From contig OZ076409.1 of the NCBI GenBank assembly GCA_964187785.1, positions 8,558,001 through 8,622,000 of the forward strand: a DNA stretch of 64,000 nt. The letters are read 5' to 3'. Below are positions 8,056-21,100 of this stretch, piece after piece (within the stretch, counting starts at the first letter, position 1; the number at the start of each line of letters is the position of its first letter). A program made the position numbers and the translations under genes. Source of the DNA: Amphiscolops sp. MND2022. Its lineage: Eukaryota. The notes beneath the pieces were generated by a model. That model ran no database searches, had not been told where the DNA came from, and was given only the letters and a program-made list of their open reading frames with translations.

Positions 8056-8826
8056 TCACTCCCTTGAACGAAAAACCAGATTTTGTGCAATCCCGAAATG
8101 ATACCCACGGAAAGGCAGATAAGCACTGAAGCGTAGGAAAATAGGACAGTTGAAGTAGGCATCCAACCCTCCCTCATCCAACAGCCGAAGTTGCCACTCC
8201 CTCTCAGCGGTACTCCAAACTGCCCATAGACGGCGAAACTGATCCCTCTGGAACAGGGTTAGACGGGAATAACCCAAAATGTAGCTTCGTAATTGAAAGA
8301 GAAGCATACCTCTCTGCTCTGCAAGGAAGGCGGGACTACCACCTCCTCCCATACACTTGCATGAGGGAGGCCGAAAACCTTCCGAAATTGCCGGGAAAAT
8401 AACGACAAACCCTCGATATCCTCTAGCCGACACTTTGCCCCCAACTAAGAAAATCCATGAAGGACTCTTCGTCTCCATCGCAGAGCTCGCCCCGTACCAT
8501 TAAACTGGCGGCCGGCGAGCAAGAGAGGCAGAGGCGACAGCCGACGATCCAACGGGCACCTAGGTGTCCAGGCGGCTAGCTCCGGCCACAGGCTCCACTT
8601 GCGGAGCCACAACCACAGCAGAACTCGACGGTGAAAAACGAGAGGAAGGGAAGCTGCCACCCACAGACGACGAAGGACTAGAAGGTAAATCGGCGGAGGA
8701 GGAGGACCCACCAGCACTGGCAGAAGAGGAGACCGAGGGAGGCACGAGCGAAGGGGCAGACGAAGCTTCGTCAGTGGATGATTCCTCATAATAGTCCTCT
8801 ATGTTGTTGCTCATTACTGAATACAA
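8056..8826 (-). pseudogene. Disrupted orphan gene with Ser/Pro-rich N-terminus
   Basis: Consecutive ORF fragments 8560-8826 (EESSTDEASSAPS...) and 8056-8478 (..FQRDQFRRLWAVWSTAEREWQLRLLDEGG..); inverted repeat GTCCTCGC/GCGAGGAC (8011-8050) right after the stop. Confidence 0.4.
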
Positions 8827-10434
8827 AGTAGCTGTAAGTTCAAAGTCATGTAAACCTAGATAAATACATAATGAGTGAAATTATCATACCTATATGCCTA
8901 ACTATGTACCGTAGTCATCCAAAATTCGATATATTATTAGAAGAATTCAACCGCATTTAACTCAGTTTCGGCAACCAATAGGATTTCACCAAACTACCAG
9001 GGTTCTACGAAAAACGTTTCGAGTTTTTTTTTTGAAAAATTGTCGCGAAGAAAAATTTACATACCAAATGAAAAATGAACAAGTAAAAAAGGGTTCAAAA
9101 AATCAATTGGCATTCTCAAATCGTCGACTTCCAAAAGTCGCTGATTTTCTCACAGACTCGCTCTATGAAACGGGATGCCTGGGTGAGCTCAACGGCAGTG
9201 AACCCGCTGATGACCTTCAGGAGTCGAGGGTACAGAGTATCGAGTCTGCAAAATCGCTTTGCCTCTGCTTTTGTCTTCCCGAATCCTGTCAAGTTGAACT
9301 TTTTCAGTTCCTGGACTATCGCAGCATCACTCCTAGAGACGATCCTCTGCTGGACAACTTCCACAATATTGCGCCCGATAGCGAACGCTTGCATTATGAG
9401 TCCGTTGTCCTTCATTGGGTCGCTTTGACGAAGATTGTTGCAAATCTTCGTATCAGAGCTCTGAAAAAGGCGCTCATCCAGCGGGGCACGGGTGTCAGCG
9501 GGGGCCTCATTGACTGCTCTGAGGAGGCGGCGCTCAACCTCCTCCTCCGTGAACTGTATTTTCCGGCGTTTGTTGGCCGGAGGAGCTCGCAGCAATGGAG
9601 AGGATGGTGGGGAAAGGGCGTCTGGTGAGGGTTGGATCTGGAAATCAGGCAGCGAAAACGGGGGCAGAATTTCGTCCAAAGGGACACCGATTTGGGGAGT
9701 TTGGCAAACTCCACCACCCGCCATCCTGCTCAGGCTCTCCAAGGAAGACCGGAACTATTGGAGCTGGCTCTGTTACAGAACGGACACTGACAGGGCACGC
9801 CGACAAGCCAAAACCGCGGAACGCAGACTAAACGAAAAACTAAATAAAAACAAGTTTAATACACAACATTTTGAATTAATAAGAATAGGTTGATAACTTA
9901 AAAATACTCCCACCTCCTCCCATACATTTGCATGAGGAAGGCCGAAAACCTTCCGAAATTGCCGGGAAAATAACGACAAACCCTCGATATCCTCTAGCCG
10001 ACACTTTGCCCCCAACTAAGAAAATCCATGAAGGACTCTTCGTCTCCATCGCAGAGCTCGCCCGTACCATTAAACTGGCGGCCGGCGAGCAAGAGAGTTA
10101 GCGGCGACAGCCGACGATCCAACGGGCACTTAGGTGTCCAGGCGGCTAGCCCCGGCCACAGGCTCCACTTGCGGAGCCACAACCACAGCAGAACTCGACG
10201 GTGAAAAACCAGAGGAAGGGAAGCTGCCACCCACAGATGACGAAGGACTAGAAAGTAAATCAGCGGAGGAGGAGGACCCACCAGCTCTTGCAGAAGACGA
10301 GGAGACCGAGGGAGGCACGAGCGAAGCGGCAGACGAAGCTTCCTCGTCAGTGGATGATTCCTCATAATAGTCCTCTGTTGTTGCTCATTACTGAATACAA
10401 AGTAGCTGTACGTTCAAAGTCATGTAAACCTAGA
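8339..10434. repeat. ~520-bp direct repeat pair (8339-8860 and 9910-10434)
   Basis: Near-identical sequences (both yield ORF MSRRLAPATGSTCGATTT...) flanking the 208-aa ORF. Confidence 0.9.
9116..9742 (-). CDS. Orphan 208-aa ORF, Pro-rich N-terminus, NLS-like PANKRRK, helical C-terminus
   Basis: Uninterrupted ATG-initiated ORF, GC-richer than its flanks, co-oriented with the other element genes; no family recognised. Confidence 0.5.
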   Translation of the reverse strand: MESLSRMAGGGVCQTPQIGVPLDEILPPFSLPDFQIQPSPDALSPPSSPLLRAPPANKRRKIQFTEEEVERRLLRAVNEAPADTRAPLDERLFQSSDTKICNNLRQSDPMKDNGLIMQAFAIGRNIVEVVQQRIVSRSDAAIVQELKKFNLTGFGKTKAEAKRFCRLDTLYPRLLKVISGFTAVELTQASRFIERVCEKISDFWKSTI

Positions 10435-11056
10435 CGTGGACGGCAAAACGAAGAGTCCAGTAGGCGGGAAAGTGTTAAAAAGAGAAAAAAGCTACTAACG
10501 ATTGGATGAGCGTCGTCTTCAGTCGGGTGTTGGTTGGTGGTTAATTAGTGGTTAATGATGTTAGAGAATGCGGAAGGGTTGTCGTTACATAAGTTTTCTC
10601 AAAGTCAAAAAAACTAGAATATTGCACGGTGTCCACCCTCTGTAGTAGAACTTTGTGCGATACTCAACAAAGTAACCTAAAGTAAAGAAAACTGGAACCA
10701 CGCTTATCGTCGATTCAACTTAGTCAGACTGTTTTACCCAAACCTTATTGATAACCTAATGTGACGAATATCAGAATGATGCTAAAACTTTACGTGTAAT
10801 TAAATGGAAATGTTCACAATTAAATCCTAATTTCTTAAAGCTGGAATGAGTTGGAAAAAAAATGAAGGAAGTTTTTAAAAAGTTTCAATTAGGCCTGAAA
10901 ACTTTCTAGTTACGCCGCTTTTTAGCCAGATAGTTCCTTGTAAGAAACTGTGTATAGTTTCTTGTTAGAAACTGCGGAGTTTATTTACTTAATAATCAAA
11001 ACAGAAAGTGTATAATACAAAACAAAAATGCCTCTTATTTGGAGTTTTAAAATAAA

Positions 11057-11175
11057 GTGAACAACTGAAGGCACTCAGGTCTCCCAAATTGTTCACAATA
11101 ACAGCGCTGTAACTTTATTGCTTCGAGTTTTTTTGGCCAGTGGCTGAAGGCACTCAGGTCTCCCAAACCACTGAC
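11057..11175 (-). ncRNA. Two copies of a conserved-loop stem-loop motif at the 3' end of the RPA-like gene
   Basis: Loop GAAGGCACTCAGGTCTCCCA (11067-11086, 11146-11165) closed by different 10-bp stems GTGAACAACT/AATTGTTCAC and GCCAGTGGCT/AACCACTGAC; minus-strand AATAAA at 11114-11119. Confidence 0.6.
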
Positions 11176-12258
11176 CACTGCAACATCCGTTCCTCAAGAA
11201 GTCTGGGGGTTTGCTGTTGTTCCACTCGTCTCGGGGGTTGCTGTTGTTCCACTCGTCTGGGGGCTGCTGTAACTCCTTCTCCTCTGTACATCTTCGCCTT
11301 CTGTTCGTCTGTCATCTCCTTCTCCGGTTCCAGTCTCGCGATGTGGAAGTTCTTGTTTTCCACGGCTGTTCCTTCCTCGTCCACAGCGGATTTAAACCAA
11401 CCTAAAATCCTAAATCCCTCCCCTGTATTTATTTCCCTAACCAAATCTTGAACAAATGTATCCAATTGAAACCGATCAATACTGTCCGATTCAGCCTTAA
11501 ATCTCCTAACCTCTCGACTTACAAAAAAATCCGTTGATTGAGATGAATAGATAGATAAAAAGTCTTCGTTGTGCACGTTTTCATTCAACTCCGGACAGGT
11601 GAACTCAAAAAAAGGACCCAATTTTTCTTGCCGTTCGACTCAAGACATCCGCACGGCTCGTGTTATGTCTGACCGTCGCACAGTTTGCCAGCACAGACGT
11701 TGTCTGCGATGACGGCAGAGTCGACCTTGAGTTGCTTGGTCACGAACGAGAAAAAACGAAATTCCAATGAAGACCCTTCAACGTCGTAAGGGGGTAGCGT
11801 GATTTGGTTGATGGCGGCTGTCGTCGGAATGAGTGGCTCTCTTGTTGAAATCAGCGGCGTTCCTCCTCTTGAAAGTTGTCCTTCGATGTTGGGCTTGATT
11901 ATCGTTACCACCGATCCAGGCTTGAGGTTCTCAAAATATCGAAAGAGGGTCCTTGATTCCTCACTGTTGGCGCTGAATAAGGCAATTACTGTGGACGTTC
12001 CAGGCTCTCCTAATACCAAGAACCGGTGGTATTTCTCCAACTCCATCTTCCTTCCTCCTTGATTGTAATTCTTTGTCATCTTTGTGTAGTTGATCTTTTT
12101 GTTGGCTGGGTAACATATAGTATTACTGCAGTCAACATGTTCAGTCGTGGGGTGGCAGTATCTGGATGAAGCATGGCTTCCAACGTGATCAAAGTGAAGT
12201 TTGCGAGCAAAGCTTGGGCTTGTGCAATGGACAAATTGGCTTTGAAGAAACCAGGCAT
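11154..12258 (-). pseudogene. OB-fold/C4-zinc-ribbon protein (divergent RPA70-like ssDNA-binding candidate), ~365 codons, disrupted
   Basis: Three ORF pieces (12258-12076, 12079-11663, 11621-11154) joined by 2 frameshifts and a TAA; read-through gives VCAGKLCDGQT*HEPCGC; LKPGSVVTIIKPNI resembles OB-fold strands. Confidence 0.45.
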
Positions 12259-12389
12259 GTTTGATCTGTGAAGTAAACTCTACCGTTGACTCGAAACTAC
12301 GATATAATTTTAGAAATTTCTAAGGCTACTGATATGACGACAGACTACCTTTCCATTATATACAAACAAGTAATTTAATAGAAGAGTTA

Positions 12390-12515
12390 ATTAAAGCTAA
12401 GTTACTACTCGATTCAAGATAGATCTTTGATAAAGCTAATTTACTACCTGATTAAAGATAAACCATTACTAAAGCTAATTTGCTACTAAAGGAAATGAAT
12501 ATTAAAAGCTAACTA
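12390..12515. repeat. Degenerate ~40-bp tandem repeat upstream of RPA-like gene
   Basis: TAAAGCTAA(G/T)TT(A/G)CTAC recurs ~4 times at ~40-bp spacing. Confidence 0.6.
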
Positions 12516-13180
12516 TCTTCAGCTCAACTGTACAGATTCTAACTACTTGCAGGCAAACAGTTTTTACATTAAGGTCCCATCAGCTAAACAAAAGGAAAAG
12601 AATGAACAAGAAATTCCAATGAAATCTGATCGGATTTTCGATTATACTGGACTGAATTTTGACATTGAACACAAATAATAAAAACAAATACGATTGGATC
12701 TGATATCGCAATTTAATAAAATTACATGTTGAATAAGAATTACGGACAATTTTGGAAAAATTCCAATTTTTGACAAAATTTTTTTGTGTGCGTAATTAGT
12801 TTTCTGTCATTCTTTTCGTTTTGTTGAGCTGAAAGGTTTAATTTTTTTGGTTTTTTGTCTTTTATATTTTTTTTGGATTTTTAAGGGGTTTTATGATTTT
12901 TTTGCTTTTTCGGGGAACTTTTGTATTTTTTTTGAGAGTTTGTGTTTTCTGTTTCAACCACAAAGGCGCGCAAATTGTGAGACAGCTGCAGTAGAAGACG
13001 AAATGAGCGCAAGAAGTACACGAAGTAATGGCAAGCAGAACATCCCGAAATCAACTGACAGCTGGCAATCCGGTTTCCAGGCCAAATGTCCTCTTGTCGA
13101 TCTCCGTGCTTCCACAGCCTGAAAAGAACCGTTCTAACAAGAATAAAGGAAACAAAAAGAAACGACAAAGAGGACGGGGG

Positions 13181-13213
13181 GTCAGTTTAAGCCACTAAAG
13201 GGCTTAAACTGAC
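13181..13213. other. Perfect 13-bp hairpin downstream of SGNH ORF
   Basis: GTCAGTTTAAGCC-ACTAAAG-GGCTTAAACTGAC. Confidence 0.75.
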
Positions 13214-13283
13214 AGAAAAGCGAAAAACTGCAAGTAAAACTAAAAGTGAAAGAAATTAGGGTTGAAATTAGGAAGAAGGCATT

Positions 13284-13907
13284 TTAGCCGTAAAAGCGAA
13301 GTATCTTTCCGATACTCATTTTGAGGGAGTCAACTGTCTGGTGGGCAGGATCGTTAATTTTGAATGAAGAATTCGAAAGGTTTAAATCAAAATACTCAAA
13401 GTTTTGCTGTAACAAGGCATTCATTCGTAAATCGAGATCAGACTCGAACGTTCTCACAATGTCGCCCACTTTTCGATTGGTATCTGAGGGAAGTTTTATT
13501 GAATCTTCTTTCTTTCGCCGCACTAAAACAACAACAAAATGTGAGGGACGACAGAGTTCTTGCAAAACTTGTAAATGATTAATAACTTCATTCGGGGTTA
13601 AGACAGACGCATTTGGAGGGGCATGAGGAGGCAAAGTTAACGAATTCATGATACAGTCATGGTATACTACTACGGTGTGGGGACGAAATGAGAGGGCATC
13701 GTTGAAAATATTGCACAGGTTCTTTGCAGGATCTGGATGTTGGAATCTGGCTCCACTGGCGGCGAAATTCTTGTAGACTATCTGAGGGGGGACTTGAGGA
13801 CAGTGACGGCGGTTCCTACATGGCTCCAGGCACGTGCAAGTTTCCCACGGCTGCCTCTCAAAAGAGACGAGGTTGCTTGCACCAACAAGAGCGACACGAG
13901 AAACCAT
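13284..13907 (-). CDS. SGNH/GDSL-hydrolase-fold protein, 207 aa, intact
   Basis: Block I VALVGASN, block II NFAASGA, block III VVVYHDCIMNSL, block V DPAH followed by a C-terminal helix. Confidence 0.65.
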   Translation of the reverse strand: MVSRVALVGASNLVSFERQPWETCTCLEPCRNRRHCPQVPPQIVYKNFAASGARFQHPDPAKNLCNIFNDALSFRPHTVVVYHDCIMNSLTLPPHAPPNASVLTPNEVINHLQVLQELCRPSHFVVVLVRRKKEDSIKLPSDTNRKVGDIVRTFESDLDLRMNALLQQNFEYFDLNLSNSSFKINDPAHQTVDSLKMSIGKILRFYG

Positions 13908-14189
13908 ACTTTTAACCTGAAGAGCAGGTACTGAATGAAGTTTCCATGTTTGTGTTTGAGATTTCGACCAATTTTAGGAGCCGATAGGCGCGGAAATTAA
14001 CAATCTCTCTACATCCTATTCTAAACCTACAACCTTTCAAAAAACGTGAAGTACAAAAAACAAGTGAGGTTTACGACAATCATTTCCGAAATCTTCTTTT
14101 GGCGTTCTGGACCGTCTTCATCTTCTTTTCTTCTTCTTTGTTTGATCGATCTATTATATATGTTACTGAAATAGATATTAAATAATCTC

Positions 14190-14757
14190 ATCCGTTCTTC
14201 TTGTCTTCTTCATCTGGACGCAACTACTATAAATATTACTATTATAGATATTAATTATTCTCATCTTCCGAATCTTCTTTTCTTCTTCATCTGGACGCAA
14301 CTACTATAAATATTACTACTATAAATAATAATTATTCTCATCTTCCGAATCTTCTTTCTTCTTCATCTGGACGCAACTACTATAAATATTACTAATATAA
14401 ATAAAAATAATAATTATTCTCATCTTCCGAATCTTCTTTCTTCTTCATCTGGACGCAACTACTATAATATTACTATCATACATATTAATATTCTCATCTT
14501 CCGAATCTTCTTTCTGCTTCATCTGGACGCAACTACTATAAATATTACTACTATAAATAATAATCATTCTCATCTTCCGAATCTTCTTTCTTCTTCATCT
14601 GGACGCAACTACTATAATATTACTATTATACATATTAATATTCTCATCTTCCGAATCTTCTTTCTTCTTCATCTGGACGCAACTACTATAAATATTACTA
14701 TTATACATATTAATTATTCTCATCTTCCGAATCTTCTTTCTTCTTCATCTGGACGCT
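14190..14757. repeat. Minisatellite, ~75-bp unit, ~8 copies
   Basis: TTCTTCATCTGGACGCAACTACTATAAATATTACTA...TTCTCATCTTCCGAATCTTCTTT repeated. Confidence 0.93.
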
Positions 14758-14984
14758 CTGGTATAAACACTAGTTTGAATGTATCCAAAAACGTCTCAAT
14801 GCTCAACTCCACTCATTCTCACTACGTAAGGCAAAAGAATGGTTAAGTTTTAGAAGAAGTCAATTAAAGTCTGGATTTTAGAGTTTTAGTCAAAAAGTGC
14901 AAGTCAAAAAAGTCAAGTTTTGGGAAAGTCCGGTTTTGGTCTGAGAATTCACATTTTAGAATTTCACGATCTTTATTTAATTAG

Positions 14985-15594
14985 AGTGTGTCAGCGTGGA
15001 AGGCACTAAGGGCTACACGTGCTGCTACACTGGTTAGAAGTGATCAGTCTTTTTTTAATATGAAATGTGTATAAGCTTGGAAGGCTCAAAGGGGCTACAC
15101 AAGCTCATACACTGTAAGTCTGTATTGTCGTCTCCTGCTGTTCTGCTCCTCGTGTCGTCTGCTTCTGCTCTCGGTGTGTTTCGTTTACTTTTTTTTACAA
15201 AACAAGTGACTGGAGGCACTCAGGTCTCCCAAGCCACTTGCCAACCGATACCACACACTTTTTACATTTTAAGATGTTTCATTTTACATTTAAAGACAAG
15301 TGACAGAAGGCACTCTGGTCTCCCATGCCACTTGCCAACCACTAACCATTTTAAACAAGAATTTTTACATTTAAAGACAAGTGACAGAAGGCACTCTGGT
15401 CTCCCATGCCACTTGCCAACCACTAACCATTTTAAACAAGAATTTTTACATTTAAAGACAAGCGACAGAAGGCACTCTGGTCTCCCATGCCACTTGCCAA
15501 CCGATACCAACACACTTTTTACTTTTTACAACGGTTCATTTTACAATTTGAGGACAAGTGACAGAAGGCACTCAGGTCTCCCATGCCACTTGCC
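14985..15594 (-). ncRNA. Array of seven conserved-loop stem-loops in the 3' region of the helicase-nuclease gene (includes an 81-bp tandem triplet)
   Basis: Hairpins at 14985-15031, 15067-15112, 15201-15242, 15295-15336, 15376-15417, 15457-15498, 15553-15594; loops G(A/G)AGGC-N~12-CA; minus-strand AATAAA at 14972-14977. Confidence 0.6.
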
Positions 15595-17735
15595 AACCAC
15601 TAACCTTTTAACCTGTTGCTTCACAATGGACAATTTTAATGAGGCAGATGGCTCAAAAGGGCAACATACCTCGATAGTGAATTTTCCAAAATTGATAATT
15701 TTAGATGGATCGAAATTCCCCGCACTGGGACGATCGCGGCGTTCGAACATTTCATTGTGAATTGCGCTCTCAAAATCGCGGCGCGAAAACATTGACGCAA
15801 AATTGCACACGCAACCAGCGACAGCCCAAGGCAAACGATGCGATGTCTTGGTAAAATTAGATCCGTTGCCGCTGTTGTGTTCCGACAGCCGTGTCAAAAG
15901 AGCGCGTTCTGTCTGTCCTACATAAAAACATTCAGGCGACGTCGGGTTGAGGCTAACTAAAAGGTAAACAAAACCGCCGGGTGTTCTGGGTATGTTTTTG
16001 TTGAATGGTTCAAAAGCCATTTTCGAGATGTTAATTGGCTGAACAATGCCACCTAATCGCGAGTTGGTTCTGATTTTGTCTAACAGACTGAAAAGACGTT
16101 CTTCGCGCAAATCTCTATTTTCAAAAATTGACTTGATCGCGCCTAACGTAGCTGGCTTATCTTCGACAAAAGTGAGGTTTTTCAACTGTTTCACTCGACT
16201 CACTATGACGAAGACCTGAGACGTCATCCACAACGCATAGCTACTGTCAGTTGCGGAAATGAACGTCGCCAGCTTGTCGAACGTGTCACCCGTGAGTTTG
16301 TGTGTTGTCATGGCCACATTGTTCATCAACGGTATCTGGATCCTTCTGACTGAGTTCTTCTTGAAGGACTGCACGAAACCGGTTTGCTGCGAAAGAGTCA
16401 CTGAGCGCCAGTTCAGGTAGTCCTCGTGATCCAGCATCGCCTGAGTGATGTCAACGTCACCACCACTAGTGTCAGGGATGAACACTGTGACCGAGTCACC
16501 GGTAGGGACCTCATGGACTACACCAACCTGTCCTTGAGACAACTGCTCACTTTCCATATTAACTGTGACCCTTACCAAAGCCTTTGAGTAAACAATGAGG
16601 TGCTTGGGCTCGTTCACTTTGTCGCTCAGGTGGTTACCTACTTGACGAGAGTCGGTCTGATTCCACACTGAGCTCTTGGACAAACAGATTTCGTCAGTGG
16701 CCTCGAAGATCCTGAAAGCAGTTCCGGACTCGCGTACTCGCTGAATGTGGCTTTCGAATTCTTTTTGCTCAGCTTTCCGCTTTCCGAAAACACGCATGAC
16801 ACACGGGTCGTCCAGATCAGCTCAACTTTCCTTGAAAGTGCACTTTGCTTCCAGAATTGCCAGAATCTCGGCAACTGCAGGGGCATCGATGGGACGTCTC
16901 TACATGTGTCGAAGAACTGTTTGGCCTGCTTCATCTGTCATGCGAACGAAGTGCCCCAGAAAGAACAACGCGAAGTTGGTCAACAGAACAGGCGAGAGAA
17001 AGATGTCATTGCCTTCGATGGATGGCAGTTGCATTTGATCACCGCTAGCAATCACCAGAACGCCACCGAAAGGCAAGGTGGTCTGCTTCAACTCCTGGAG
17101 CACAATGTCCATTGCAGACCACTGTTCGGCGCTGATCAAGCTGACTTCTTCCACGAACAGCACTTCCAGGGCCAGGAGGAGCATCTTCTTCTCATTCCTG
17201 TGATCCAGCTCGTTCAACGCTTGTTCAGCCATCTTGATCGGAGAGCCAGAAGATGAGGGTGGCAAGCAGAACAATTTGTGGATGTGCTCACCACCGAAAT
17301 GGATTGACCTCCTCGAAGCTAAACTTGTAACCAAACAAAACAAACCTTTCGAAAGCGCATACCCTAACGCCATTGTTAGTACGTGAGTTTTACCTGTACC
17401 AGGAGGACCTAAAATCAACTGATGTCTGTTAAACCGGTGACCTGAAAACAAACTTTCAATGATTAAATTTTTCAGAGTTTCTAAAATTTGGGACTGCTCC
17501 TGCAAAGACTCAGCTGACTGGAAAACATTTGCAATGAGGTCAGCAGACCAGTTCGAAGGTGTTTCTTTGGTCACTGTTTCAAAATCGTTAGAAGATGGAA
17601 AATTCGGTAAATTTTTTTTTTGCGTCAACGACTTAATGATGTTAACTTGTGACTGACGAAGCAACTTCTTGGCCTTTTCCTCTAGTGCTTCAGTCAAAGT
17701 GTCCATCGTCGTGATTGGCAAGCCTTCATTGCCAA
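15541..17735 (-). pseudogene. PIF1-family SF1B helicase fused to C-terminal GIY-YIG nuclease; 5'-truncated, two in-frame nonsense codons
   Basis: Motifs ILGPPGTGKT, GGEHIHKLF, VLFVEEVSLIS, PFGGVLVIASGDQMQLP, RIQIPL..VAMTTHKLTGDTF, QVFVIVSRV; then FVYLLVS...FYVGQT...RLSEHNSG...PW; ORFs 16900-18024 and 15541-16797 are in one frame, separated by TAG (16900-16902) and a TGA in KES*ADL. Confidence 0.85.
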
Positions 17736-17740
17736 TGTTC

Positions 17741-18170
17741 GTCCACGCCCACGAACAAGCCGGAGGCGAATACCAGACTCGCCACTCAGCACACCATGCA
17801 CGACTCGCGGGTACGCTAATGAAGGACGTCCTTGGAGGTATGTGCAGAAAGATACCATGTGCACTTGGATTGCCATGGAAAGAGGCTTGGTTGGATATCT
17901 GCATACACCGACAGCGCCGAAGATAGGGGCCAAGACAGGAGCCATGGTGGCCACAGAATCCTCCACCTCGGCCAGTGTCAGGTCGGCAATCTGTTGCGGC
18001 ATTGGGAACCCTGCTGTCTCCCATGGGATTTGACTGTCAGAATTATGCAATGGTTGAGACTGGTCCACGCCCACGAACAAGCCGGAGGCGAATACCAGAG
18101 TTGAATACAGCCAGTGTTGGACAGACGCACGCATGCGTTCCAATTGGGCCTCCGAAAACATTTCGAAAAT
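17741..18170 (-). pseudogene. Fragment of an unrelated orphan ORF abutting the truncated helicase
   Basis: EMFSEAQLERMRASVQHWLYSTLVFASGLFVGVD...; exact 37-bp direct repeat at 17741-17777 and 18063-18099. Confidence 0.35.
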
Positions 18171-21100
18171 TGAATTTGTAGTTGCAATGCGACAGAATGA
18201 GTTTAAGCAATCGCTGGTACTTGCTAATTTCTTCTCGGGTATTGTAACTTGATTGTGATTTGTAGTTGAAACGTTCGCGTGTGACACTTCCCGCCCTGCG
18301 CTGGAAAATTTCTCGTTTCCACTCGACGCGCGAGAAAAATTGCTGATTTTCCCGCGCCGCGCGGGAAACTGCTCAATAATCCGTTAGTTGTTGAGAAATT
18401 GTGACTATAAGGCTGCCGCGCGGGAAATTCTCTTCGTGTTCTACCTATGAGACAGACATTTCCCGCCGCGCGTGGGAAATTCTCTTCGTGTTCTACGAAT
18501 GAGACAGACATTTCCACCTCTGACACTGTCGCCATGTCGATTTCGTCTGGATAGAGATAATCTCCTTCCTCTGCGACATCAGCGATGTTGGTTAGGGGTG
18601 ATGGGGTGTTATCGTTTATTTCTCTGGAAAATCAAAATCAAACGATAATAACTTCAGTAATTTTCCTCTGAATTTTCTTCGATAAAAAACCAACATCGAA
18701 AGATCTTGCACTGGTTCCGACAAATCGAATTGGGGAAATTCCAGGTTGCTGATGCTAATTGGTGAAGACATTCTAAAACAGACAAAAAAGATGAGATTGA
18801 AGATTTTTTCAGGTGATTGAAATGAGGAGTTGATTGCAAAAACAACTAACGTTTCTGCTGAATTTATAGAGTCTGCTGAATCTGCTGAACGTTGCTGAGT
18901 CTTGAGCTAATGAATTTGTAAAGTCTGCTGAATCTGTTGAACGTTGCTGAGACTGGAGCTGCTGAATTTGTAGTTGCAATGCGACAGAATGAGTTTAAGC
19001 AATCGCTGATACTTGCTAATTTCTTCTCGGGTATTGTAACTTGATTGTGATTTTTAGTTGAAACGTTCGCGTGGGACACTTCCCGCCCCGCGCGGGAAAA
19101 TTGCTCGTTTCCACTCGACGCGCGAGAAGAATTGCTGATTTTCCCGCGCCGCGCGGGAAACTGCTCAATAATCCGTTAGTTGTTGAGAAATTGTGACCAT
19201 AAGGCTGCCGCGCGGGAAAGTCTCTTCGTGTTCTACCTATGAGATAGACATTTCCCCTCCGCGCGCGGGAAATTCTCTTCGTGTTCTACTAATGATACAG
19301 ACATTTCCACCTCTGACACTGTCGCCATGTCGATTTCGTCCGGATAGAGATAATCTCCTTCCTCTGCGACATCAGCGATGTTGGTTAGGGGTGATGGGGT
19401 GTTATCGTTTATTTCTCTGGAAATTCAAAATCAAACGATAATAACTTCAGTAATTTTCCTCAGAATTTTCTTCGATAAAAAACCAACATCGAAAGATCTT
19501 GCACTGGTTCCGACAAATCGAATTGGGGAAATTCCAGGTTGCTGATGCTAATTGGTGAAGACATTCTAAAACAGACAAAAAAGATGAGATTGGAGATTTT
19601 TTCAGTTGATTGAATTGAGGAGTTGATTGCAAAAACAACTAACGTTTCTGCTGAATTTGTAGAGTCTGCTGAATCTGCTGAACGTTGCTGAGTCTTGAGC
19701 TGCTGAATTTGTAAAGTCTGCTGAATCTGCTGAACGTTGCTGACTCTGGAGCTGCTGAATTTGTAGTTGCAATGCGACAGAATGAGTTTAAGCAATCGCT
19801 GATACTTGCTAATTTTTTCTCGGCTATTGTAACTTGATTGTGATTTGTAGTTGAAACGTTCGCGTGGGACATTTCCCGCCCCGCGCGGGAAAATTGCCCG
19901 TTTTCACTCGACGCGCGAGAAAAATTGCTGTTTTTCCCGCGCCGCGCGGGAAACTGCTCAATAATCCGTTAGTTGTTGTGAGAAATTGTGACCATAAGGC
20001 TGCCGTGCGGGAAATTCTCTTCGTGTTCTACCTATGAGACAGACATTTCCCGCCGCGCGCGGGAAATTCTCTTCGTGTTCTACTAATGAGACAGACATTT
20101 CCACCTCTGACACTGTCGCCATGTCGATTTCGTCTGGATAGAGATAATCTCCTTCCTCTGCGACATCAGCGACGTTGGTTACCCGTGATGGGGTGTTATC
20201 GTTTATTTCTCTGGAAAATCAAAATCAAACGATAATAACTTCAGTAATTTTCCTCAGAATTTTATTCGATAAAAAACCAACATCGAAAGATCTTGCACTG
20301 GTTCCGACAAATCGAATTGGGGAAATTCCAGGTTGCTGATGCTAATTGGTGAAGACATTCCAAAACAGACAAAAAAGATGAGATTGAAGATTTTTTCAGT
20401 TGATTGAAATGAGGAGTTGATTGCAAAAACAACTAACGTTTCTGCTGAATTTGTAGAGTCTGTTGAACGTTGCTGAGTCTTGAGCTGCTGAATTTGTAAA
20501 GTCTTCTGAATCTGCTGAACGTTGCCGAGTCTGGAGCTGCTGAATTTGTAGTTGCAATGCGACAGAATGAGTTTAAACAATCGCTGATACTTGCTAATTT
20601 CTTCTCGGGTATTGTAACTTGATTGTGATTTGTAGTTGAAACGTTCGCATGGGACACTTCCCGCCCCGCGCGGGAAAATTGCTCGTTTCCACTCGACGCG
20701 CGAGAAAAATTGCTGATTTTCCCGCGCCGCGCGGGAAACTGCTCAATAATCCGTTAGTTGTTGTGAGAAATTGTGACCATAAGGCTGCCGCGCGGGAAAT
20801 TCTCTTCGTGTTCTACTAATGAGACACACATTTCCACCTCTGATACTGTCGTCATGTCGATTTCGTCTGGATAGAGGTGATCTCCTTCCTCTGCGACATC
20901 AGCGATGTTGGTTAGGGGTGATGGGGTGTTATCGTTTATTTCTCTGGAAAATCAAAATCAAACGATAATAACTTCAGTAATTTTCCTCAATTTTCTTCGA
21001 TAAAAAACCAACATCGAAAGATCTTGCACTGGTTCCGACAAATCGAATTGGGGAAATTCCAGGTTGCTGATGCTAATTGGTGAAGACATTCTAAAACAGA

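Follow-up and report, generated by a model that had tools for sequence, protein, structure and literature searches.

The genes of a Helitron-like transposon in Amphiscolops sp. MND2022 are trailed by hairpins that share a conserved loop and differ in their stems. These hairpins fold on one strand, are under selection, and stand after stop codons and before a conserved AATAAA hexamer. They were analysed in a stretch of 64,000 nucleotides (nt) of contig OZ076409.1 (assembly GCA_964187785.1, positions 8,558,001 to 8,622,000 of the forward strand), called the window below, which by its sequence contains one copy, ~7.3 kb long and truncated at its 5' end, of a multi-copy rolling-circle element that is Helitron-like. 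That the hairpins are a selected single-stranded structure is well supported by the covariation of their stems, by wobble pairs of the G:U kind on one strand, and by loops that are better conserved than coding DNA. To this extent a proposal made in the first-pass annotation of the window has stood, while the small ribozyme that it offered as one form of such a structure is without support (see below). The hairpins are tentatively taken to be protein-binding RNA stem-loops in the putative 3' untranslated regions (UTRs) of the transposon genes, a reading in which slightly less than even confidence is placed.

Hairpins in the window

Seven hairpins carry the main loop, which on the sense strand reads UGGGAGACC(U/A)GAGUGCCU(U/C)C, and two more carry a variant loop. 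The main-loop hairpins occupy positions 11057-11096, 11134-11177, 15201-15242, 15295-15336, 15376-15417, 15457-15498 and 15553-15594 of the minus strand. The hairpins and the array are as follows.

11057 to 11096, minus strand: hairpin A, stem GUGAACAAUU/AGUUGUUCAC with one G:U pair, main loop; 65.0 bits with the covariance model
11134 to 11177, minus strand: hairpin B, stem UGGUCAGUGGUU/AGCCACUGGCCA with two G:U pairs, main loop; 68.9 bits with the covariance model
~14985 to 15031, minus strand: hairpin E, imperfect, variant loop UGUAGCCCUUAGUGCCUUC, a short way 5' of an AATAAA
15067 to 15112, minus strand: hairpin D, 13-bp stem GUGUAUGAGCUUG/CAAGCUUAUACAC with one G:U pair, variant loop UGUAGCCCCUUUGAGCCUUC; 46.3 bits
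15201 to 15594, minus strand: array of five C-type hairpins, 3' of the Rep-helicase-GIY-YIG frame, in repeat units of 81-96 nt

The 20-nt core of the main loop, GAAGGCACTCWGGTCTCCCA on the plus strand, was found seven times in the window by a pattern search at one mismatch or fewer (loop positions 11067, 11146, 15212, 15306, 15387, 15468 and 15564). By chance 0.01 matches are expected, and seven were reached in none of 100 shuffles. The main-loop stems in the window are 10-12 bp long, and their non-Watson-Crick pairs are all G:U on the minus strand, which is the gene-sense strand. The first-pass annotation had described seven main-loop and two variant-loop copies on 10-13 bp stems of differing sequence, with non-Watson-Crick pairs that are G:U on the minus strand, including a private substitution in the 15457 copy, and with an imperfect copy at 14985. 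The coordinates and the pairing bear out this description, down to the private change, which is A to G, and the mismatches at ~14985-15031.

The nine copies should not be counted as nine independent stems. Those at 15295-15594 are tandem units whose stem is common by descent, so that the window holds ~4-5 independent stems. The stems of the C-type array have the form GGCAAGUGGC(A/U)/(U/A)GUCACUUGU(C/U), and a tandem repeat with a period of 81 nt, 2.7 copies and 99% matches is found at the array. Hairpin A is the second hairpin 3' of the accessory (OB-like) gene, and in other copies of the element it has a 16-bp stem, GUUGAGGUGAAUAACU/AGUUGUUCACCUCAAU. A UGA within the loop of hairpin B closes the open frame of the upstream gene in the window copy.

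The genome searched for further copies is the 1.07 Gb assembly; loci extracted from it are numbered with an L, and L058-L060 are metagenome contigs. Hairpin D is kept across subfamilies, with a 9-nt deletion in the loop in five of them. In hairpin E, the covariance model fits the loop half only (14.6 bits, E 0.64). Its mismatches in the window copy are would-be wobbles on the opposite strand, and in the L046 subfamily its upper 7 bp are perfectly paired. Stretches complementary to the loop elsewhere in the element amount to three eight-mers per element, which does not differ significantly from the ~1.5 estimated by chance.

Covariation and strand specificity

Pairing was scored in 15 representative hairpins, one per distinguishable stem variant, which were picked by the authors from 89+5 matches; five of them come from two metagenome contigs. 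In the lower stem, 150/165 cells are paired (90.9%), and double changes occur in 10 of the 11 pairs. The observed covariation score, percentage paired, number of cells changed and pair types were each matched by 0/500 shuffles, and the count of pairs with double changes by 25/500; the representatives are kin by descent, so these counts should not be taken as probabilities. When the partner was slid by 1-3 columns as a control, pairing fell to 28.5-41.2%. Among the wobble cells, 18 are G:U and two are A:C. The double changes and this excess of G:U over A:C indicate that folding is by the gene-sense strand only, the antisense strand being mismatched.

The RNAalifold consensus is a single hairpin of 13 pairs, in which a 3-bp upper stem follows a bulged U and carries an apical loop of 13 nt with the sequence AGACCUGAGUGCC. 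In the upper stem, pair 18-36 is G-C in all 15 hairpins, pair 19-35 is G:U in six, G-C in five and U:U in four, and pair 20-34 is G:U in 11, A-U in three and C-G in one. The load of G:U pairs is ~2 per lower stem, plus two in tandem in the conserved upper stem. Nine loop columns are invariant among the 15 hairpins. Polymorphism in the loop is confined to position 26, which belongs to the apical loop, and position 35, where U or C switches the pair from G:U to G-C. As sense RNA the hairpins have energies of -14.4 to -25.0 kcal/mol, compared with -11.8 to -20.3 kcal/mol for the antisense of the four main-loop hairpins that were folded on both strands.

With an E limit of 1, a covariance model of the hairpin matched the window and the loci, together 263,502 bases, 89 times. 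These matches collapse to 65 distinct rows with 542 Watson-Crick, 107 G:U, 8 A:C and 32 other cells. We read the A:C and other mismatches in single genomic copies as mostly private changes from decay after insertion. The first-pass annotation had looked to additional copies for compensatory pairing and strand bias, and both are seen in the 15 representatives.

These data bear directly on the idea that the 20-nt core is a double-stranded DNA site, such as an iteron or a binding site of a transcription factor or of Rep, and that the inverted flanks are incidental or form a cruciform. The core does recur in direct repeats at 77-96 nt spacing, which resemble iterons. Such a site would leave unexplained both the covarying arms and G:T mismatches that occur on one strand only, and it is considered highly improbable.

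Copies in the genome and in metagenome contigs

At two mismatches or fewer, the core has 89 matches in the genome, and the reversed control has none. Most of these matches cluster at ~11 element loci with the layout of the window (two copies, ~4.3 kb, array), and the sequence at 10428-17738 of the window is repeated at these ~11 loci. A distant subfamily, whose helicase is 78-80% identical, is present in many copies. Among the isolated matches that were examined, L053-L057, a stem is found only in L055, a decayed hybrid copy. The genome pattern search revealed no dispersal of the motif outside the element, so that the logic of REP/RAYT systems, to which it had been likened at first pass, does not hold for it.

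An exact-pattern DNA scan of metagenome contigs found two true relatives from another source. In L058 the C-terminal end of the Rep-helicase-GIY-YIG frame and its stop codon are followed by three hairpins, and these by ORF2; in L059 two hairpins follow the stop codon of the accessory gene. The loop is unchanged in both contigs, but the stems are new, and one of them is arm-swapped, CCACUAcUU/AAcUAGUGG. Between the window and L058/L059 the loops are 96-100% identical, compared with 76% for the transposase DNA and 69-70% for the other two genes. A third match, L060, was rejected as chance, being coding, GC-rich and without a stem. A protein-guided scan of the metagenome contigs confirmed no relative, and the main loop had 0 matches in viral contigs.

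Several rearranged copies were also observed. At L055:1076-1127 (C3:64267075-64267126) a hybrid hairpin joins the 5' arm of B to the 3' arm of A across one loop, as might result from a loop-to-loop recombination that removed the 80 nt separating the two. The window copy is a mosaic in its identity to the closest copies (L031 and L032), with 96-98% over 15726-17731 and 79-86% over 11043-14756; the step between the two coincides with the hairpin array, a sign that subfamilies may have recombined at this point. In L036-L038 (C13:16606000-16631999) and L039-L040 (C13:45145000-45162999), rearranged fragments of the element are arrayed in tandem, with units of ~2.1 kb and ~4.4 kb. The units combine ORF2 and a portion of the accessory gene with the final 245 nt of the transposase gene and with one or a few hairpins, and their junctions are not at loops.

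Such rearrangements raise the question of whether the hairpins are functionless palindromic tandem repeats, generated by slippage or template switching as in Helitron/Helentron satellite arrays. Short tandem arrays are well documented in those elements (PMC8268682, in its available text), the copy number of the present array ranges from 3 to 9, and the L055 hybrid shows a loop-to-loop deletion. A neutral by-product would not be expected, however, to keep loops 96-100% identical where coding DNA has fallen to 69-76%, nor to change its stems yet keep them paired, as even the arm-swapped stem does. The ratio of 18 G:U to 2 A:C cells and a second, unrelated loop class that behaves alike likewise oppose this explanation, which is regarded as very unlikely.

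Position relative to stop codons and putative poly(A) signals

Each of the four genes of the element is trailed by a hairpin or an array, which stands on the stop-codon side of the spacer. The first hairpin begins 14-23 nt past the stop, both for the accessory gene (in L032 and L059) and for the transposase (in L058). Two hairpins follow the accessory gene, and 3-9 follow the transposase gene. The associated hexamers are listed here.

14972 to 14977, minus strand: AATAAA, a few nt 3' of hairpin E, putative poly(A) signal of the Rep-helicase gene
11114 to 11119, minus strand: AATAAA, between hairpins B and A

A further AATAAA is present at 10980-10985 on the minus strand. The three hexamers, at 14972, 11114 and 10980, agree with the earlier remark that the copies lie near minus-strand AATAAA signals. 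At the 14972 site the hexamer is canonical in 8 of the 9 alignment rows that cover it. At the 11114 site it is canonical in five of eight copies and is absent from the metagenome copy L059. The order of array, D, E and AATAAA is kept across subfamilies.

Other classes of hairpin

A second class, X, has the form (stem)AUC-GACGAURAGCGU-GGU(stem'), with the loop GACGAURAGCGU and outer stems that include CUGGA/UCCAG, GAGAG/CUCUC, GAAAG/CUUUC and CACUG/CAGUG. In the distant subfamily, class X hairpins stand 3' of the transposase stop and of the accessory-gene stop, within a few hundred nt of the terminus, and also in the spacer that follows an upstream SGNH-like gene. In 10 representatives, 82/90 cells are paired (91.1%), and double changes occur in six of nine pairs. 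In covariation score, in percentage paired and in number of cells changed, none of 500 shuffles equalled the observed hairpins, whereas 217 and 346 of 500 did so in the other two measures. The upper stem is conserved, with an invariant U:G. The class X core has 260 matches in the genome at one mismatch or fewer, and the control has 0. Five matches of the X loop in viral contigs were dismissed as chance, because their flanks are not complementary.

The window copy contains a degenerate member of class X and a hairpin of a third kind, Y.

10688 to 10723, minus strand: degenerate X copy, loop GACGAUAAGCGU, in the terminal region of the window copy
10617 to 10665, minus strand: hairpin Y, AUAUUGCAC-27 nt-GUGCGAUAC, third kind of hairpin

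The terminal stretch with X and Y is 88.6-93% identical between subfamilies (93% for the window), as against 78% for the helicase gene. To have conserved-loop hairpins behind each gene is thus a general trait of this transposon family, and the two loop classes can share sites.

Search for known RNA families

The first-pass annotation had called the motif novel. It belongs to none of the Rfam families at gathering score, as the window in its entirety had 0 matches to Rfam 15 families at that threshold. When the limit was relaxed to E 10 for 10900-15700, only three weak matches were reported, snoR35, bxd_1 and snoU85 (E 1.7-8.4), and none of these models the hairpin itself. Some mobile elements carry ribozymes, which is the ground for considering a small self-cleaving ribozyme or a small-RNA precursor here. 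The lack of an Rfam match to the hairpins under either setting and the plain form of the motif, a single hairpin without junction or pseudoknot, disagree with a ribozyme, and stems of 10-16 bp are short for Dicer-type precursors. Either identity is hardly credible.

Host element and its genes

The host is assigned to the Helitron-like elements by the predicted domains of a full-length relative, in which Rep and a PIF1-like helicase are contained in one protein. The first-pass annotation had spoken of two genes and of PIF1-GIY-YIG genes. The Helitron context had been missed: the PIF1-GIY-YIG gene is a 5'-truncated, frameshifted remnant of the transposase, and the other is the accessory gene of the element. 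The features of the window copy other than hairpins and hexamers are the following.

15541 to 17738, minus strand: Rep-PIF1-GIY-YIG gene remnant, 5'-truncated and frameshifted, with the helicase and GIY-YIG parts only
14196 to 14756, no strand assigned: 76-bp tandem repeat, 7.3 copies, between the hairpin block and ORF2
13284 to 13973, minus strand: ORF2, SGNH/GDSL-hydrolase-like (Atlas neighbours 0.93-0.94, a lead only)
11154 to 12319, minus strand: accessory gene, in two frames in the window copy, intact with 398 aa in L032
10428, minus strand: 3' boundary of the element, sequence ending ...GCCGUCCACGUCUAGGU; five close copies are identical to this point and then diverge

The frame at 15541-18036 (minus strand) matches Pfam PIF1 (5.5e-11) and GIY-YIG (8.4e-6), and homology to other copies ends at 17731-17738. 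Frameshifts occur in the window copy near 16821-16937, and a 74-nt deletion at 15725/15726, seen as split matches against all close copies, has removed the normal stop. The full-length relative, from the distant subfamily, is one uninterrupted frame of ~2377 aa (L051:5750-10000 + L044:2-3883; C1:73724750-73731883), with Helitron_like_N (PF14214, 1.1e-9, above cut-off), PIF1 (PF05970, 9.3e-12) and a C-terminal GIY-YIG (PF01541, 1e-5). The HUH found in full-length relatives is that of a Helitron Rep and not of a RAYT, and the window copy is without the Rep part. The DUF6570 marker had no match at E up to 0.01 in the full-length relative proteins; it typifies the Helitron2 group (HLE2), along with short terminal inverted repeats and insertion between T and T, whereas the Helitron1 group (HLE1) has a 5' TC, a 3' CTRR and insertion between A and T. 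For the helicase-GIY-YIG part 39 relatives were found, the close ones being unnamed proteins; one at 43% identity (959 aa) shares the fusion. Capture of a GIY-YIG by a Helitron-like family has been described for the moss family HelenSM92 (PMC11417382, in the part of it available), and this is the sole such report that was found in the literature searched.

ORF2 had no match in Pfam. It is followed by a perfect 13-bp hairpin with a 7-nt loop at 13181-13213 on the minus strand, the stem of which recurs in L058 with a different loop. The element holds one or two SGNH/GDSL-hydrolase-like genes, an unusual accessory for a Helitron-like element. The upstream SGNH-like gene (L051:3993-4712) matches DUF459 at 1.3e-5, below the curated cut-off. 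The accessory protein had no match in Pfam nor in a profile search of the PDB. Judging from its Atlas neighbours (OB/POT1/MEIOB/RPA, 0.88-0.91, a lead only), it may be an OB-fold protein that binds single-stranded DNA (RPA-like). An AlphaFold2 model made from three sequences had a mean pLDDT of 35.9 and was unusable. No covariance-model match falls inside the 76-bp repeat, which contains no hairpin of the present classes.

The close copies end with ...GCCGTCCACGTCTAGGT at 10428 of the window, and the 3' end is CTAGG followed by T in all five of them. Behind the ...CTAGGT end, diverged copies of another repeat (..GGGGTAGGGCCCC..CGATCTCG..ACGATTTGGCTGAAATTT..) were observed in four of the five close copies and in two distant ones (from L031:2400-2512, L061, L062, L063, L045, L046 and L051:2236-2604). 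This other repeat was also seen to follow unrelated sequence that ends in TAGGT. It may represent either a favoured target or the 5' portion of elements inserted in tandem.

Outside the 3' boundary, at 8445-8880 and 9994-10413, are two similar minus-strand open frames, one reading frame of which is Ser/Pro-rich; neither was matched in the genome DNA search. On the other side, the truncated 5' end of the transposon copy directly adjoins a tandem array at 18000-40000 with units of ~730-795 bp. A hairpin, TGTTATCGTTT...AAACGATAATA, recurs in that array at 18607, 19400, 20194, 20927, 21719 and onward. Its GC content is an even 0.42-0.44, its GC skew is positive, and open frames repeat on its minus strand.

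Possible RNA stem-loops or signals in displaced DNA

Under the favoured explanation the hairpins would act in cis as RNA stem-loops in the 3' UTRs of intronless Helitron-like genes. Each would be made up of three parts: at the base a variable stem of 10-16 bp, above it a bulged U and a conserved 3-bp upper stem with G:U pairs, and at the top the conserved 13-nt apical loop. A sequence-specific protein, of the host or of the element, would read the loop and the upper stem, and the number of hairpins would set the amount of protein bound. The effect would be post-transcriptional, on mRNA stability, on the export of intronless mRNA, on 3'-end formation or on translation. We infer RNA as the folded molecule, the protein reader and the effect alike. 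The points counted for RNA are the frequent and partly invariant G:U pairs, the weak fold of the DNA, the placement on the stop-codon side, the order of array, D, E and AATAAA, and the intronless genes; intronless genes often require 3' UTR elements for their expression.

A number of observations weigh against this explanation. Hairpin A sits downstream of the AATAAA at 11114 and could fall outside the mature mRNA. Class X is found, besides its places behind genes, in the conserved terminal few hundred nt downstream of the AATAAA, where it looks like a cis element at the level of DNA. Hairpin D is more stable as antisense RNA (-22.0 kcal/mol) than as sense RNA (-19.9 kcal/mol), the hairpin at L058:1343-1394 differs from the predicted minimum-energy fold (z -0.04), and hairpin E is in most subfamilies mismatched (C:A/A:C) on the sense strand. 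To these may be added the eight A:C cells among the 65 distinct model matches and the kinship of the representatives mentioned above. Lastly, the strand transposed in Helitrons is the gene-sense strand with the CTAG-type 3' end. The strand that folds is thus that of the mRNA and also the one expected to be displaced, and the strand bias cannot separate RNA from single-stranded DNA.

The hairpins might accordingly be thought to fold in the single-stranded DNA displaced during rolling-circle transposition and to serve as signals for recognition, pausing, termination or second-strand priming, by the logic of the origin hairpins of plasmids and phages or of REP/RAYT. Their readers would then be the HUH Rep, the PIF1 helicase, the GIY-YIG nuclease, the OB protein or a host primase. 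This is the main alternative, considered possible but less likely than the RNA explanation. The encoded proteins act on single-stranded DNA. Full-length relatives encode Helitron_like_N, PIF1 and GIY-YIG in one frame, and the OB-like accessory protein, a lead only, would fit as well; if the substrate is single-stranded DNA, the HUH Rep of full-length copies would be at least as natural a reader as the GIY-YIG. The folding strand is the gene-sense strand and bears the CTAG-type 3' end. The energies point the other way: as DNA, three main-loop hairpins of the window fold at -6.7 to -8.6 kcal/mol (z -0.7 to -2.5, with two of the three at ~-0.7 to -0.8), compared with -14.4 to -22.7 kcal/mol for the same three as RNA, and the conserved 3-bp upper stem would contain two G:T mismatches.

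Class X is present near the 3' terminus too, in the best-conserved non-coding stretch, whereas the main hairpins lie 630 to ~5170 nt from the 3' boundary and on the stop-codon side of each spacer. The identity to the closest copies drops at the array from 98% to 79-84%, as if by template switching or recombination, but no examined copy ends or rearranges exactly at a loop. Terminal hairpins with compensatory changes are on record for Helitron2, where they are assumed to serve transposition (PMC3627910, in its available text), and they offer a precedent for a role in DNA.

The present hairpins were also compared with the Helitron 3'-terminal (RTS) hairpin, and this identity was rejected, as the copies lie at the distances just given and not, like the single RTS hairpin, within ~10-30 nt of the boundary, preceding CTRR or following the 3' terminal repeat. 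Nor does the loop vary freely, as that of an RTS hairpin would; here the loop is the conserved part. The fold of the last 103 nt of the element is no more stable than that of shuffled sequence (z +0.90). Hairpin A does not form the 3' terminus, since the sequence downstream of it is still related between subfamilies.

A more specific form of the DNA explanation would regard the hairpins together with class X as single-stranded DNA signals of an undescribed Rep-PIF1-GIY-YIG transposon, whose own HUH or GIY-YIG nuclease reads the loops and perhaps nicks or primes at them. It is thought unlikely. A slight hint in its favour lies in a likeness between the apical loop CCUGAGUG and the 3' end of the element, UCUAGGUG; this likeness is broken by the U-to-A change that is common at position 26.

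Relation to known systems and significance

As RNA stem-loops, the hairpins would resemble in architecture the iron-responsive element, the Smaug recognition element, the U1A polyadenylation-inhibition element and the retroviral constitutive transport element, in that a conserved loop and a short conserved upper stem are set on a bulge and a variable lower stem. Such systems likewise have several copies per 3' UTR, near the poly(A) signal. The present hairpins have no sequence likeness to them and no Rfam match, and it is their RNA nature, here a matter of interpretation, that the comparison presupposes.

With the hairpins of rolling-circle and HUH systems (plasmid single-strand origins, circovirus and geminivirus loops, REP/RAYT, IS200/IS605 ends) they share strand specificity and a conserved loop that could be read in single-stranded DNA, and full-length copies of the element encode an HUH Rep. 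They differ in that they are not dispersed outside the element, unlike REP, in that no copy ends at the loop, and in their weak fold as DNA.

The terminal hairpins of Helitron1 and Helitron2 (HLE1 and HLE2) also occur in Helitron-like elements, on the transposase-sense strand and with compensatory stems (PMC3627910 and PMC11417382, in their available parts). Those hairpins, however, are single, stand tens of nt from the end, and have small loops and a sequence that is unconserved between families, whereas the hairpins described here are internal, form arrays of 2-9 after stop codons, and conserve the loop rather than the stem. Helitron/Helentron satellite arrays are alike in having units of tens of nt to 100 nt in the central or 3' part of the element; in the available text of PMC8268682 they are described as satellite monomers, and no conserved-loop hairpin or covariation is reported there. 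No description of conserved-loop hairpin arrays behind Helitron genes was found in the literature searched, some of it available in part, with supplements and most subscription journals outside its scope.

The motif is a cis element of one transposon lineage. Although Helitrons are widespread, little is known of their cis-acting signals other than the terminal hairpin. The Helitron-like family described here, which is unusual in its fusion of Rep, helicase and GIY-YIG, maintains conserved-loop hairpins of two unrelated classes behind each of its genes, under strong selection. The motif is short and defined by covariation, and its covariance model is applicable to other eukaryote genomes. If the hairpins act in displaced single-stranded DNA, they would reveal the way in which the displaced strand is recognised by a rolling-circle transposase of eukaryotes or by its helpers, and, with class X included, they would be a eukaryotic counterpart of origin-loop or REP/RAYT-type recognition. 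If they act as RNA, as is tentatively preferred here, they would constitute a compact, portable protein-binding module that controls intronless transposon genes.

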